From the sequence record NC_054913.1: DNA of 64,000 nucleotides; one strand, 5' to 3'. The translations under genes were made by a program, and so were the position numbers. Numbering within the stretch: position 1 is the first letter of the stretch; the number at the start of each line of letters is the position of its first letter. The notes under the pieces were generated by a model. The model saw only the letters and a list, made by a program, of their open reading frames with translations. It was not told the origin of the DNA and searched no databases. Positions 790 through 62,983 of the stretch are shown piece after piece. Source of the DNA: Escherichia phage F2.

Positions 790-2877
790 ATGTCTGAACA
801 ATTAAATGAAGTGTTTGAATCTGAAGGCAGTCTTCCTGTCGTCAATTTGAACCCTAAAGCTAAAGTTCCACAAGTCTGGAAAATTGGTGATATCGATACA
901 AACATCGTAGTTCGCTTATTCTCTTACCTTTCTGAAGGCGATGCTGTAAAACAAGTTAAACTTGGCGACAAATACGCTCATGTTGTTATTATGAGTCTGT
1001 CTGAAAAGGGTAATCTCGCTGAATTGAAAAATGGCCTTGGTCCTGCTCCTATTGATGCAATCAACACCATTTTCAATACGGTATATGAACAGGTTAAAGC
1101 TCTTCGTATGGATGCAGTTCTGTTCCGGTTCCCTACCAAGAAATTGAAAGGACGTGGACAACAGCTTCAAACTCTTCTTGCTCGTTTAGTTTCTACTAAA
1201 ACTGGCGGTCGTTTTAAAGTATTGTCAGCAATGTATCAATTCACAGGTAAACACACCTATGTGATGATGGTTCGTAAAAATGCCAACATTGAAGATATTA
1301 AAGGCATCCCTAACATTAACACAGAGTTGTACACGAAAGTAGATTCTGATGTTGGCGAAGTTTATGTGAGTAAAAAGACTGGTGAAATGGTCACCAAAGA
1401 AGCGGCTATCGCTGGTTCTATTGCTGCTGTAGAAGAAAAACGTAAAGATAAGCCTGTTATTGCTCGTACTAAAATTTCTCGTCGTGCTATTGCAGCAAGT
1501 CAATCTTTAGAAGCTGACCGCCAAGAAGGTGAGTTATTCCAGAAATACGAAAATTCTGCTAAAGAAGTTAGTGGCCCAGCTACAGCCGAATTACTTCCTG
1601 AAGCATATGAAATCGTACTAGCCCAAGCATCGTCCACAGCAAAAGGCACTTTAGTTGCTGATATCGAAAATAAGATTTATAATCGTATTGATGAATCCTT
1701 TAGATTTGCTGATGAAGTTTCTTATGGTAGTGTTATTAAGCCAACTTTAGAAAAGTTTGCTAAGAAAATTAAAACTGAAAAAACAACATCTGTTAAAGCA
1801 TTAGCTGCTTTTGTTGAAGCTGCAAATGAAATTGCAGACTCTATTAAAGACGAATGGTTTGAAGATTTTAGACGTGATAATTTCCAACTGGCCGACGACG
1901 TTTTAGCTGAAGTATCTGAAAAAACTTGGAAACAACGTAAATCAGCGTTCTTGTCTAATGTGATGTATACTTATGCACGAGAATCGGCTAGAGGCACCTT
2001 TAATATAACAATGAATCGGGACCCTAAACAATACTCTGTTGCTGAAAAACGAGCTATTCGTGAATATGCCTCTTCTGCGTATACCGATATCAATAATATG
2101 TTGTTAGGTCGTTATAAACCAGATTTTTACGATGTTGCAGATGAAGATGAAGTTAAACGCGCTATTGATGGTCTTGATTCGGCGTTTTTAAATGGAGACC
2201 GTTTACCTGAAGGACTAACGTTATATAGAGCCCAGTCTATCAGAATGCCTATTTACGAAGCAATGGTTAAAAATAAGGTATTCTACTTCAGAAACTATGT
2301 TTCCACTTCACTAGCTCCTATTATTTTCGGTGGGTTTAAAGAGAACGTTGCCCTTGGACTTGCTCCTGAAGAAGTTCGCAAAGAGCTTAACATTGACAAT
2401 AATGACGAAGGTGTTACTATTTCTCCTAGTCAAGTAAGAACAGCTATGCATGCACCAGACCAAATCCGTGTTAACGTTGGATGGGCTATTGATGGCGCCC
2501 ATAAAGTTAACGTGATTTATCCTGGACAGTTGAGTAATCACCCTAATGAGCAAGAAATTATTTTGCCTAGAGGCATTCTCTTGCAGATAAATAAAATTAC
2601 GGATGCGTCATCTGACACTGGTGCAGGTTTAGAATCCAACCTTAAATTTATTCAAGCTGAAGTCATGTCCTCAGACCAGTTGGACGAAGTTGTCATTTAC
2701 GATGGTGATGTTCTCATGGAAACAGGCGAGGTGGTTGCTATGACTGGTGAAATCGAATCAGATGAGCCGATATCGTTCTCCTCATTTGTAGAAAAAACTA
2801 GTGCTCCTAAAGGATTGAAATTGTTAGCATCTTTAATGGATTTAGAATCAGTTCCGTTTAAATTTGTCCAAGGATAG
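790..2877 (+). CDS. alt: Alt ADP-ribosyltransferase (virion-packaged, modifies host RNA polymerase), 695 aa
   Basis: 695-aa ORF with AGGA-type RBS; N-terminus and length match my recollection of T4 Alt; synteny between gene 30 and gene 54. Confidence 0.85.
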   Translation: MSEQLNEVFESEGSLPVVNLNPKAKVPQVWKIGDIDTNIVVRLFSYLSEGDAVKQVKLGDKYAHVVIMSLSEKGNLAELKNGLGPAPIDAINTIFNTVYEQVKALRMDAVLFRFPTKKLKGRGQQLQTLLARLVSTKTGGRFKVLSAMYQFTGKHTYVMMVRKNANIEDIKGIPNINTELYTKVDSDVGEVYVSKKTGEMVTKEAAIAGSIAAVEEKRKDKPVIARTKISRRAIAASQSLEADRQEGELFQKYENSAKEVSGPATAELLPEAYEIVLAQASSTAKGTLVADIENKIYNRIDESFRFADEVSYGSVIKPTLEKFAKKIKTEKTTSVKALAAFVEAANEIADSIKDEWFEDFRRDNFQLADDVLAEVSEKTWKQRKSAFLSNVMYTYARESARGTFNITMNRDPKQYSVAEKRAIREYASSAYTDINNMLLGRYKPDFYDVADEDEVKRAIDGLDSAFLNGDRLPEGLTLYRAQSIRMPIYEAMVKNKVFYFRNYVSTSLAPIIFGGFKENVALGLAPEEVRKELNIDNNDEGVTISPSQVRTAMHAPDQIRVNVGWAIDGAHKVNVIYPGQLSNHPNEQEIILPRGILLQINKITDASSDTGAGLESNLKFIQAEVMSSDQLDEVVIYDGDVLMETGEVVAMTGEIESDEPISFSSFVEKTSAPKGLKLLASLMDLESVPFKFVQG

Positions 2878-52616: not shown

Positions 52617-52904
52617 ATGAAAACCTATAAAGAATTTATATCACCTGTTGCTAACGTTTCTACTCTGACCGAAGCAACCCTTACTTCCGAAGTTATTAAA
52701 GCAAATAAAGGACGTGAGGGTAAACCAATGATTAGTCTGGTTGACGGCGAAGAAGTAAAAGGTACTGTTTACTTAGGGGATGGATGGTCTGCTAAGAAAG
52801 ATGGCGCTACTATTGTTATCTCTCCGGCTGAAGAGACTGCACTGTTTAAAGCTAAGCATATTTCTGTAGCTCAGCTTAAAATTATTGCAAAAACTCTTCT
52901 GTAA
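52617..52904 (+). CDS. internal protein with capsid-targeting leader (IpI-like), 95 aa
   Basis: N-terminus MKTYKEFIS resembles the T4 internal-protein capsid-targeting sequence MKTYQEFIAE; position after 57B as for T4 ipI. Confidence 0.7.
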   Translation: MKTYKEFISPVANVSTLTEATLTSEVIKANKGREGKPMISLVDGEEVKGTVYLGDGWSAKKDGATIVISPAEETALFKAKHISVAQLKIIAKTLL

Positions 52905-54429: not shown

Positions 54430-54504
54430 GGCCCTGTAGCTCAATGGGAGAGCTGTCAGCTCATAACTGATAGGTAGCTGGATCGAAACCAGCCAGGGCC
54501 ACCA
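54430..54504 (+). tRNA. tRNA with CAU anticodon (Met, or Ile if lysidine-modified), CCA encoded
   Basis: Manual cloverleaf: 7-bp acceptor GGCCCTG/CAGGGCC, D stem GCTC/GAGC, anticodon loop CTCATAA, T arm GCTGG-ATCGAAA-CCAGC, ACCA 3' end. Confidence 0.8.
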
Positions 54505-54510
54505 AACAAA

Positions 54511-54582
54511 TGGTGCATCGTATAAAGGTTATTACGGGGAGCTGTTAACTCCTTTATCTTGGTTCGAGTCCAAGTGCGCCAG
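54511..54582 (+). tRNA. tRNA-Asn (GUU)
   Basis: Manual cloverleaf: acceptor TGGTGCA/TGCGCCA with one G-U pair, anticodon stem GGGAG/CTCCT, loop CTGTTAA, T arm CTTGG-TTCGAGT-CCAAG; no CCA encoded. Confidence 0.7.
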
Positions 54583-54656: not shown

Positions 54657-55322
54657 ATGAGCATTTGTAAACATTGTAATATGGAATTTGATATTTCTAA
54701 TAAACCTAAAGGATGGATGGCTAACCACACTAGATGGTGTAAATCCAACCCTAAATTGGAATTGTATAAAGAAAGTTCTAAATCAGCCATTGCAGCAATG
54801 AATAAAGCACGTATAGCTTCAGGTAATTTAAACCAGTATGTTGTATCTAAAAAGACTGGTGTCCCTGTAGTAATTTCGGAAGAGACTAGACAAAAATTGT
54901 CAGCCGCTTCATTAGGTAGAGAACACTCTGAGGAATCTAGAATAAAAATATCTAATGCTCGGAAAAAATGGTTGAATGAAAACCCTGATAAACATCCTTG
55001 GAAGAAAAATACAAAATTTAAATCTGTGCCTTGTGAATTTTTGAAATCTAAATTAATAGAAAACGGAATTTCATTTATTGAAGAATACCAACCGGTTAAA
55101 AACCGAGCGTATTGCACGGATATTGCTTTAATAGATAAAAAGATTATTATTGAAGTTAATGGAAACCAACATTACTCCAATCCTAAGAAAAAGATTTTGG
55201 CCCCTTATTATAAAGAACGCCATGATATTATAAAATCATTAGGATGGGAAATATATGAACTTCATTATGCTGAAGTTTATAAAGAAGATATTGTAAATAA
55301 TTTAATTGCCTCTATAGTGTAA
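54657..55322 (+). CDS. free-standing endonuclease, non-GIY-YIG: N-terminal Cys/His cluster, NUMOD3-like repeats, C-terminal PD-(D/E)xK-like (Vsr/DUF559-type) domain; 221 aa
   Basis: CKHC...HTRWC; repeats SEETRQKLSAASLG and SEESRIKISNARKKW; C-terminal IIIEVNGNQH...KERHDIIKSLGWEIYEL; lies between tRNA-Asn and tRNA-Arg, last 5 codons overlap tRNA-Arg. Confidence 0.6.
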   Translation: MSICKHCNMEFDISNKPKGWMANHTRWCKSNPKLELYKESSKSAIAAMNKARIASGNLNQYVVSKKTGVPVVISEETRQKLSAASLGREHSEESRIKISNARKKWLNENPDKHPWKKNTKFKSVPCEFLKSKLIENGISFIEEYQPVKNRAYCTDIALIDKKIIIEVNGNQHYSNPKKKILAPYYKERHDIIKSLGWEIYELHYAEVYKEDIVNNLIASIV

Positions 55323-55383
55323 TGGATAGCATATAATCGTTCTAAGGTTAATGGTGAGAGTTCAAATCTTTCTAGAGGCACCA
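55308..55383 (+). tRNA. tRNA-Arg (UCU), CCA encoded
   Basis: Manual cloverleaf: acceptor GCCTCTA/TAGAGGC, anticodon loop GTTCTAA, T arm GAGAG-TTCAAAT-CTTTC, ACCA 3' end; T4 also encodes tRNA-Arg(UCU). Confidence 0.75.
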
Positions 55384-60062: not shown

Positions 60063-60593
<531 letters not shown>

Positions 60594-60670: not shown

Positions 60671-61144
60671 ATGAAAACATATCAAGAATTTATTACTGAA
60701 GCAGCTATTAATTCTCAAATTATTGCTGAATCTTTTACTGATCTTTTGAAATTTAAAAAAGGACAGAAAATTACTGCTGTATTAGATGATGGTACAGAAG
60801 TTGAGATGGATGTACAGGGATATAATTATGCAGTAGATGGAAAACTGTATAATAAATCTCATGCTAAATTTGATTCATTTGATGATTTTGTTAATACAGT
60901 TGAAGATGAAAAAACTCGTCGATCCATTGCAACTGGTGATGCTAAGGTTCTTATGGCGCATGGGCATGAACGTATTCGCGCTAAACAGAATAAAATGGGT
61001 GAAGATAATTTCGCATTAGTTGGTTATCAATCTGGTAAACAAACTTATGGTTATCAGCGTACTGCTACCATGTATAATAAAAATGGTAAAATCGCTTTCG
61101 TGAATAGTAAAGGTTCTATTCAGTACGTTAAATCGTTCAAATAA
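60671..61144 (+). CDS. internal protein with capsid-targeting leader (IpII/IpIII-class variant), 157 aa
   Basis: N-terminus MKTYQEFITEA matches the T4 capsid-targeting sequence; position next to e as for T4 ipIII/ipII; length differs from T4 IpII (100 aa) and IpIII (194 aa). Confidence 0.7.
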   Translation: MKTYQEFITEAAINSQIIAESFTDLLKFKKGQKITAVLDDGTEVEMDVQGYNYAVDGKLYNKSHAKFDSFDDFVNTVEDEKTRRSIATGDAKVLMAHGHERIRAKQNKMGEDNFALVGYQSGKQTYGYQRTATMYNKNGKIAFVNSKGSIQYVKSFK

Positions 61145-61201
61145 CATGGGAACAACCTGGACCTCATGATTCTGTGAGGGATTCCCGCCAACCTGTAATA
61201 A

Positions 61202-61223
61202 GGTCGAGCCCAAGTGCGGTAAT
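61202..61223 (+). pseudogene. tRNA 3'-end remnant (T arm plus acceptor) related to tRNA-Asn
   Basis: ggtcgagcccaagtgcggtaat versus ggttcgagtccaagtgcgccagtaat at 54561-54586; no matching 5' half upstream. Confidence 0.45.
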
Positions 61224-61285
61224 GGGTAAATACAGAAATGGACAATTCATGCGCCATGGAATGGCCCAAATTTAGAGAGAATAAA

Positions 61286-61828
61286 ATGAGAACATTTTTA
61301 ACTGGTCCTTATCTATCCCTGATGAATGCTTTTACACACCATTCTGATGCTAGAGTAGAAGAAATTTGTAATAGTGGATTTTATGTACCTGATTCGTCGC
61401 ATTTATTTAAAGAATATTGTACACTTCGTTTAGATGGTGGCAGACAATCTGGTAAATCAACTGCAGTAACTAATTTTGCCGCTAATTGGTTGTATGATGG
61501 TGGAACAGTTATTGTTCTTTCTAATACTTCAGCTTACGCTAAAATTTCTGCGGGCCGCATTAAAAAAGAATTTTCTCGTTATTCTAGCGATGATATTCGA
61601 TTCCGTTTATTTACTGATTCTGTCCGTAGTTTTGTTGGTAATAGAGGTAGCAAGTTCAGAGGTTTATCGCTTTCTCGAATTTTGTATATAATCGATGAGC
61701 CTGTTAAATCTCCTGATATGGATAAAATTTACGATATTCATATTGAAACTGTGCACCACTGTTGCAATAGTAAATGCTGCATTGGTGGTATTACTCGTCC
61801 TCAATTTTTTGTGATTGGAATGCAATGA
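61286..61828 (+). CDS. P-loop NTPase-like hypothetical protein with C-terminal Cys cluster, 180 aa
   Basis: Walker A GGRQSGKST, Walker B-like ILYIIDEP, HHCCNSKCC; start set at the ATG at 61286. Confidence 0.5.
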   Translation: MRTFLTGPYLSLMNAFTHHSDARVEEICNSGFYVPDSSHLFKEYCTLRLDGGRQSGKSTAVTNFAANWLYDGGTVIVLSNTSAYAKISAGRIKKEFSRYSSDDIRFRLFTDSVRSFVGNRGSKFRGLSLSRILYIIDEPVKSPDMDKIYDIHIETVHHCCNSKCCIGGITRPQFFVIGMQ

Positions 61829-62140: not shown

Positions 62141-62503
62141 ATGAAAGCATATCAAATTCTTGAAGGTGCACATAAAGGCACTATTTATTTTGAAGACGGT
62201 ATTCAAGCCCGGATTATTGTCTCTAAGACTTTTAAAGAAGACGATATTGTAGACCCGGAAATTTTCTACGGTTTGAATGCTCGTGAAATTGAAATTGAAC
62301 ATCAACCTAAAGTTAAAATTGAAGGTGGTCAACACCTGAACGTTAACGTTCTGCGTCGTGAAACTCTGGAAGATGCAGTTAAGCATCCTGAAAAATATCC
62401 GCAGCTGACCATCCGTGTATCTGGTTATGCAGTTCGCTTTAACTCTCTGACTCCGGAACAGCAGCGCGACGTTATCGCTCGCACCTTTACTGAGAGTCTA
62501 TAA
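62141..62503 (+). CDS. autonomous glycyl-radical cofactor (GrcA/YfiD-like), 120 aa
   Basis: C-terminal 60 aa carry the glycyl-radical motif RVSGYAV and end in TFTESL, matching E. coli GrcA as I recall it; T4 is reported to encode such a homolog (Y06I). Confidence 0.8.
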
Positions 62504-62727
62504 TGGCTAAATTGATTATAGAAGGGTCCGAAGATGTTTTAAAATGTTTTGCCGCCTGGTTTAGTTGCTCAGGCGAGCAATCATTCATTGAAGCATTTAG
62601 AACGGGTGATATTACTGGAAAATATCCGACAACTGATATCACTGTACGCGGATATGGTATTAATGAGCCTATCCAATTGGTTGAATATGACCTTGCCACC
62701 GATGAGGAAATTCCTTATGTCGATTGA
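62503..62727 (+). CDS. hypothetical protein, 74 aa
   Basis: TAATG overlap with the upstream gene. Confidence 0.5.
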   Translation: MAKLIIEGSEDVLKCFAAWFSCSGEQSFIEAFRTGDITGKYPTTDITVRGYGINEPIQLVEYDLATDEEIPYVD

Positions 62728-62983
62728 AGACATCAAAGGCTACAAGCCACATACCGATGATAAAATCAGTAAAGTGAACGCTATTAAAGACGCAGAAGTC
62801 CGTCTTGGATTGATGTTTGATGCTCTGATTGAAGAAGCATATATCTTGAAAGAAAATGAATCAGAGCAACAAACCAAAGAAGATATGGATGCAGTGCAGG
62901 CTCTTAAGTATGCTAAGCAACATCTAAAAGAAGCCAGCATGTGGGCATGCCGTGCGGTATTTCGACCAGAGGAAAAATACTAA
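62717..62983 (+). CDS. hypothetical protein, 88 aa
   Basis: ATG at 62717 with GAGGAA RBS; the ORF track extends upstream in frame. Confidence 0.5.

Follow-up and report, generated by a model that had tools for sequence, protein, structure and literature searches.

Does the small host-like gene vs.6 of Escherichia phage F2 supply the infected cell with a spare part for a host enzyme, or does its N-terminus send the product into the phage head, and how did half of the gene come to be nearly identical to host DNA? We studied this locus in a stretch of 64,000 nucleotides (sequence record NC_054913.1), hereafter the window. A preliminary description, made from the letters of this DNA, had read the gene as coding for a glycyl-radical cofactor that replaces a damaged part of oxygen-cleaved pyruvate formate-lyase (PFL), and had speculated that its N-terminus is a capsid-targeting leader through which the protein is packaged and injected. 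The gene was delimited from the ORF listing, a Pfam match and orthology:

62141..62503 (stop codon included), plus strand: vs.6, the phage grcA, orthologue of T4 Y06I.

The vs.6 ORF had an ATG start, 120 codons and a TAA stop, and its product was a protein of 120 aa and 13.8 kDa. It was a stand-alone ORF with its own ribosome site, a GAGG Shine-Dalgarno sequence 6 nt 5' of the ATG, and its stop codon overlapped the ATG of vs.5 (ATAATG). The F2 region corresponded to that of an RB69-like T-even phage (RB69 group, Mosigvirus): vs.6 was 97.5% identical in nucleotide sequence to the RB69 gene, and the order vs.8-vs.7-vs.6-vs.5-vs.4-regB was common to both genomes, with the genes vs.8-vs.7-vs.6-vs.5-vs.4 likewise arranged in T4. 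The T4 protein Vs.6 (NP_049730), which by our own equation we take to be the Y06I of the biochemical literature, was 94% identical to that of F2 and had the same N-terminus. The exact protein match was YP_010069019.1 of Escherichia phage F2, labelled 'autonomous glycyl radical cofactor GrcA' in RefSeq. These results confirmed that vs.6 is the T-even phage homologue of host GrcA (YfiD), a gene already annotated and, like its function, already known.

Several other features were recorded around the gene. Two genes 3' of vs.6, the vs.4 homologue (62717..62983, plus strand) contained a Pfam Acb2/Tad1 hairpin domain (E=8e-18) and belongs to the Acb2/Tad1 anti-defence family. The vs.8 homologue (61286..61828, plus strand; PHROG 1488) showed a weak match over residues 46-149 to the large-terminase family phrog_2 (E=2e-6). 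In the spacer of ~140 nt between the internal-protein gene described below and vs.8 (61145..61285), the GC content reached 0.475 as compared with 0.375 for the whole window, and neither an Rfam match nor a clear terminator was found there. The Rfam search over the whole window revealed only three tRNA genes (RF00005), located at 54430..54582 and 55308..55380 of the plus strand, and nothing in or near vs.6.

The cofactor function was assessed through the motif that carries the radical, identified from the translation and from alignments to GrcA (6OWR) and PFL (1CM5/1H16):

62414..62434, plus strand: glycyl radical motif RVSGYAV, residues 92-98.

Vs.6 matched the Pfam family Gly_radical (PF01228) with E=2.3e-18. 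The best phmmer matches in the PDB were GrcA 6OWR (E=1e-42) and the C-terminus of PFL 1CM5/1H16 (residues 658-759, E=5.6e-27), and no NrdD chain was present among the 33 PDB matches with E up to 0.001. The radical glycine G95 (62423..62425) aligned with G102 of E. coli GrcA, and we take it, from the literature, to be equivalent to G734 of PFL; the RVSGYAV columns were invariant in an alignment of 26 phage and bacterial homologues. In BLASTP against the GrcA of the annotated E. coli chromosome, overall identity was 74% over residues 22-120 of Vs.6, and its last 59 residues (62-120) were 100% identical to GrcA residues 69-127. The protein thus combined the features of this class of cofactors: a small separate ORF, the radical motif, a PFL-type C-terminus and orthology with a validated member.

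Only two PFL spare-part proteins have been validated, E. coli YfiD and T4 Y06I (PMC8683613, the JBC 2021 YfiD paper). According to Wagner et al. 2001, as related in PMC8683613, both are radicalised by the PFL activase and restore oxygen-cleaved PFL. The N-terminal half of E. coli GrcA is needed for binding cleaved PFL and for efficient activation, and NMR showed that this half of YfiD is disordered in solution (PMC8683613). In this respect the preliminary description was borne out: the Pfam match, the PDB alignments and the T4 orthology agree with a glycyl-radical cofactor gene, the C-terminal half is nearly identical to that of E. coli GrcA, and T4 does encode such a protein. The alignments to the C-termini of GrcA and PFL that it had proposed as a check could both be made, with the radical glycine retained. 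The proposed role as a spare part for oxygen-cleaved PFL gains support by analogy from the biochemistry of T4 Y06I (PMC8683613), assuming that Y06I is Vs.6. We consider the cofactor call confirmed, the function of the F2 protein being transferred from the T4 orthologue.

Comparison of vs.6 with E. coli grcA divided the gene into three parts:

62141..62320, plus strand: codons 1-60, the phage-type N-terminal half, with GC 0.33 and GC3 0.22, homologous to the N-terminal half of GrcA and strongly diverged from it.
62321..62491, plus strand: codons 61-117, the host-identical tract, which encodes the glycyl radical domain and has E. coli codon usage.
62492..62503, plus strand: the last three codons and the stop (GAG AGT CTA TAA), of phage type, forming the 3' border of the host-like tract.

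Codons 61-117 were identical to E. coli grcA at 168 of 171 nt in the window and at 170 of 171 in T4, whereas codons 31-60 matched at only 47 of 90 (Fisher p=2e-20 for the contrast). The codon-by-codon comparison showed abrupt borders on both sides of the tract, and GC3 was higher in the 3' half of vs.6 (0.40) than in the 5' half (0.22). Among other enterobacteria encoding the same 60 residues, nucleotide identity to the phage tract was only 84-91%; synonymous sites can thus vary freely, which marks the phage tract as specifically Escherichia DNA. In T4 and the window the flanking DNA was ~78% identical, i.e., about 22% of positions differed, and each tract was 98-99% identical to that of E. 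coli.

The same arrangement was found with another host in the Klebsiella Jiaodavirus UTI-K4. Its 5' half was of phage type (74% identical to the window), and its 3' tract matched Klebsiella grcA at 164 of 171 nt as against 148 of 171 for E. coli, the two bacterial tracts being identical to each other at 150 of 171. GC3 in UTI-K4 was 0.23 for the 5' half and 0.60 for the 3' half, and the gut bacterial grcA of 57% GC that it matches was identified as encoding Klebsiella GrcA (GRCA_KLEP7) by exact-sequence look-up of the protein. Searched against the phage database, the E. coli tract matched 377 records at 99% or more, 264 at 95-99%, 2 at 90-95% and 107 at 80-90%, which amounts to 641 phage records at 95% or more; the rows sampled from the 80-90% band were Klebsiella phages. 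Conversely, the Klebsiella tract matched 106 records at 95-99%, of which all those sampled were Klebsiella phages; the 527 records that it matched at 80-90% were for the most part E. coli phages. The two host tracts divide the phages bimodally by host genus. Tequatroviruses propagated on Salmonella and Yersinia carried the E. coli tract. Single representatives of Slopekvirus, Karamvirus, Krischvirus, the Aeromonas phages and the T5-like phages showed no host-identical tract, with at most 83% identity to any sampled bacterium, and the conserved motifs were retained, with some amino acid substitutions, in Slopekvirus, Karamvirus, Krischvirus and the T5-like phages.

These sequences are most simply read as the outcome of repeated replacement: in one lineage after another, homologous recombination would have exchanged the 3' module of an ancestral phage vs.6 for the grcA of the local host. 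We think it somewhat probable that recurrent conversion from the host gene keeps the radical half in step with the current host, the Escherichia T-even phages carrying the E. coli tract (98-100% nucleotide identity) and the Klebsiella Jiaodavirus the Klebsiella tract, with both groups retaining one and the same diverged N-terminal half of phage type. A transfer from phage to host is unlikely, given that codon usage in the tract is that of the host and that divergence among the bacterial genes follows that of the species. A limited literature search found no description of this host-tracking mosaic, which is the only element of the locus that might be new.

Overall, 1586 phage records matched Vs.6, T5-like phages among them. 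One hit (H101), considered as a T5-like carrier of the E. coli tract, was rejected since it is an incompletely assembled Tequatrovirus. The grcA homologues of Aeromonas phage 31 and of the T5-like phage DT57C adjoined tRNA gene arrays. In Aeromonas phage Ah1 the homologue was located directly after nrdD-nrdG and before nrdC-nrdH (1022..2447 of the locus examined, L091), that is, within the anaerobic ribonucleotide reductase cluster and not in the vs cluster as in T4 and RB69; this placement is a hint that, in some lineages, the gene is connected with anaerobic ribonucleotide reduction. A record titled Vagococcus sp. WN89Y contained an enterobacterial-type grcA whose protein fell in the Klebsiella GrcA cluster, and this assembly is probably mislabelled or contaminated.

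The supposed leader of Vs.6 was compared with those of two internal virion proteins encoded in the window:

62141..62164, plus strand: codons 1-8 of vs.6, MKAYQILE, the leader-like N-terminus, assessed by alignments, bacterial N-termini, profile searches (no internal-protein match) and an AF2 prediction.
60671..61144, plus strand: internal virion protein used as comparator (Pfam DUF7412, E=6e-96; PHROG 3155 'internal virion protein', E=6e-102).
52617..52904, plus strand: second internal virion protein used as comparator, with the leader MKTYKEFISPVANVSTLTE (PHROG 4363 'internal virion protein', E=6e-48).

The first comparator begins with the capsid targeting sequence MKTYQEFITE (60671..60700), 1.5 kb 5' of vs.6. 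Its first 24 aa matched 12 PHROG families via profile positions 1-12 to 1-24, and 8 of these 12 carry an annotation as internal virion or head protein. The N-terminus of the second comparator matched three PHROG families. The leader MKTYKEFISPVANVSTLTE is without Glu at position 10 and has LTE at positions 17-19, and its sequence suggests a longer propeptide of ~19 residues.

Vs.6 was identical to MKTYQEFITE at M1, K2, Y4 and Q5, and its I6-L7-E8 fitted the I-x-E motif. The window contained 139 ORFs with an ATG start and a length of 50 aa or more; MKxYQ occurred in two of them, those of the internal protein and vs.6, and [LI]xE ending at positions 6-12 was common (20 ORFs, 14%). In ungapped BLOSUM62 comparison over the ten leader residues, Vs.6 scored 8, against 47 and 33 for the real leaders of the first and second comparators, and ranked 10th of 578; this ten-residue likeness is within noise. 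Searched against the PHROG profiles at a permissive threshold (E up to 10), the N-terminal 24 aa of Vs.6 matched phrog_1209, the family of Vs.6 itself, and no other family, those of the internal proteins included. As to the targeting positions 4 and 7 of IPIII, where Tyr4 and Phe7 are reported as the most important residues (PMC9026906), Vs.6 presented Tyr4, and its position 7 was Leu, not Phe.

The beginning of Vs.6 aligned with that of its bacterial relatives. Its A-Y-Q-I-L shared columns with G-I-Q-I-T of E. coli GrcA, and Q5 was conserved in at least 90% of the 26 phage and bacterial sequences of the alignment. Bacterial GrcA starts with M-I-[TKQ]-G-I-Q-I-T in more than 60 genomes, GIQIT being near-invariant, and intermediate homologues begin with MKAIQII, MKALQIK and MIKGIQIL. 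Because they are shared with bacterial GrcA and with these intermediates, K2, Q5, I6 and the hydrophobic position 4 are read as inherited from a non-packaged family. Glu8, and with it I6-L7-E8, was present in the Tequatrovirus, Mosigvirus and Jiaodavirus copies; elsewhere position 8 was Asn (Kosakonia and Karamvirus type), Ser or Thr (Yersinia and other T4-like phages) or Ser or Asn (T5-like phages). An AF2 prediction, made from an input alignment without the T4 row, assigned residues 2-6 to strand 1 of an N-terminal sheet of four strands with a pLDDT of ~86, which is a weak point given the disorder of YfiD in NMR.

Expression classes were taken from T4. In time-resolved omics of this phage, vs.6 is an early RNA and a middle protein, and the products of ipI, ipII, ipIII and e are late proteins (PMC9697503 supplement). 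In the window, the plus-strand late boxes TATAAATA nearest vs.6 were those at 60065 and 60078, 5' of gene e, and this box was absent from the plus strand between 60085 and 64000. A pattern scan revealed no MotA-type middle promoter near vs.6, and scans for sigma-70 promoters and terminators around the gene gave results at chance level. Transcription of vs.6 may also occur by read-through from the late promoters of gene e.

With this evidence the competing explanations can be weighed. If MKAYQILE were a capsid targeting sequence, Vs.6 would enter the prohead core, be cut by gp21 after Glu8, be packaged, and be injected at the start of infection. The literal residues that prompted the idea are real: the four identities, the restriction of MKxYQ to vs.6 and a true internal protein among the 139 ORFs, Tyr4 followed by a hydrophobic residue at position 7 (Leu for Phe; PMC9026906), and a tripeptide that fits the L/I-x-E motif of the protease. 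Moreover, vs.6 lies only ~1 kb 3' of the internal-protein gene, and very different short leaders also function, such as that of Alt, cut at ITE-6 (PMC5694885). Beyond these residues the likeness to a leader did not hold, since the full ten-residue similarity scored at noise level and no internal-protein profile was matched at E up to 10, as opposed to 12 families for the true leader. The segment aligns instead with the GIQIT start of non-packaged bacterial GrcA, including the conserved Q5, and other T4-like orthologues have N, S or T in place of Glu8, the proposed cleavage site, as do the T5-like homologues. Residues 2-6 make up the first strand of a folded sheet in the prediction, T4 vs.6 gives an early RNA and a middle protein as against the late internal proteins, and Vs.6 is acidic (pI 5.8) as compared with the neighbouring internal protein (pI 8.9). 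T4 mass-spectrometry data show only IPII, IPIII and Alt (PMC5694885), and a literature search found no virion-protein listing that names Vs.6, nor one that rules it out. The preliminary description had named an N-terminus conserved with non-packaged homologues as an observation that speaks against packaging, and such conservation is what was found. With six independent lines from sequence and literature against it, capsid packaging of Vs.6 is not supported, and we consider this explanation extremely improbable. The case also serves as a caution: four shared N-terminal residues are weak evidence when they are inherited from non-packaged homologues.

Two further explanations concern the host-like half. 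Without recombination, extreme purifying selection together with convergent codon choice on an anciently captured gene would have to account for the identity of the tract. The peptide of codons 61-117 is near-invariant across Enterobacterales, grcA is a highly expressed gene with biased codon usage, and with a protein so strongly conserved, constraint could explain some of the DNA similarity. Even so, 9-16% of the bases of the phage tract differ in bacteria whose 60 residues are exactly the same, as compared with about 2% in E. coli, the lineages that lack the signature keep the motifs and yet reach at most 83% identity to any sampled bacterium, UTI-K4 has a Klebsiella-specific match with GC3 of 0.60 next to 0.23 in its 5' half, and the borders of the tract are abrupt on both sides; we therefore regard this possibility as quite unlikely. 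It is also highly improbable, in our judgement, that Vs.6 serves as spare part or partner of the phage's own anaerobic ribonucleotide reductase NrdD, itself a glycyl radical enzyme, and not of host PFL. An early comparative paper proposed a role in nucleotide metabolism from the shared Gly_radical domain (PMC1524935), and the position of the Ah1 homologue directly after nrdD-nrdG and before nrdC-nrdH agrees with it. Against this, the radical domain is identical to that of host GrcA and aligns with PFL residues 658-759 (E=6e-27), the PDB matches contained no NrdD chain, the tract follows host grcA and not a phage gene, and T4 Y06I works with PFL and the PFL activase (PMC8683613).

The explanation that best accounts for the locus as a whole, and that we hold with high confidence, is that Vs.6 is an intracellular, unpackaged PFL spare part of the GrcA type, encoded by a mosaic gene formed through repeated gene conversion from the host. 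Vs.6 would be made in the infected cell as an early/middle product, with no delivery by the capsid. By analogy with T4 and E. coli, when oxygen cleaves host PFL at its radical glycine, the C-terminal domain of the 14-kDa Vs.6 would slot into the damaged enzyme, the host activase PflA would install the radical on G95, and the conversion of pyruvate to acetyl-CoA and formate would resume. This would presumably sustain the fermentative energy supply during infection under low or fluctuating oxygen. The first 60 codons would represent an old, AT-rich, phage-type GrcA N-terminal half, and codons 61-117, the part that has to fit host PFL and its activase, would be kept host-identical by repeated gene conversion from the host chromosome. 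Since the N-terminal half is strongly diverged, and since that half is needed for PFL binding in E. coli (PMC8683613), the phage protein may bind PFL or be regulated differently from its host counterpart.

As a phage gene for a host-derived metabolic helper vs.6 is a textbook case, and the gene itself adds nothing new. If the mosaic is confirmed, it would mean that T-even phages, which destroy host DNA early, still copy a 171-nt host patch repeatedly into their own homologue, and it would mark off the region of the spare part that must match the host from the N-terminal half that the phage keeps. The mosaic would in this way be a natural experiment on how GrcA recognises damaged PFL. If true, it would also be a clear case, among enterobacteria, of a metabolic gene in a phage that keeps up with its host through replacement of homologous patches, and it would imply that a protein fitting host PFL and activase exactly is selected for.

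Among known systems, T4 Vs.6 is the closest to the F2 protein, having the same length of 120 aa, the N-terminus MKAYQILEG, the vs.7-vs.6-vs.5 neighbourhood and the E. coli-identical 3' tract, in addition to 94% amino acid identity. The differences are few substitutions, located in the N-terminal half and the linker, and F2 being a phage of the RB69 group (Mosigvirus) with flanks only ~78% identical to those of T4. E. coli GrcA (YfiD, 6OWR) has the identical C-terminal 59 residues, RVSGYAV included, and a homologous N-terminal half with the Q-I motif at the start and an A-R-x-I-V segment. The phage protein, however, is 7 residues shorter, its AT-rich N-terminal 60 residues are so diverged that BLASTP aligns only from residue 22, and its gene lies in a phage early cluster, whereas the host gene is found between ung and eamB. 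With the T4 internal proteins IPI, IPII and IPIII and their capsid targeting sequence (Mullaney and Black 1996), Vs.6 shares the M-K-x-Y-Q start and an [IL]-x-E within the first 10 residues. It differs from them in having no profile similarity to the leaders and no Phe7, in the displacement of the motif by two residues, in a segment inherited from bacterial GrcA, and in the expression class of the T4 orthologue; in addition, vs.6 is a conserved, core-like ORF outside the hypervariable internal-protein locus. Finally, psbA of cyanophages is a host-derived metabolic gene in T4-like phages which has exchanged segments with the host copy, giving rise to patchwork genes. The vs.6 gene is likewise a host-derived metabolic gene with a patchwork of host segments, but only the half that docks into the host enzyme is replaced, the segment covers ~171 nt, and the phages split cleanly between Escherichia and Klebsiella.
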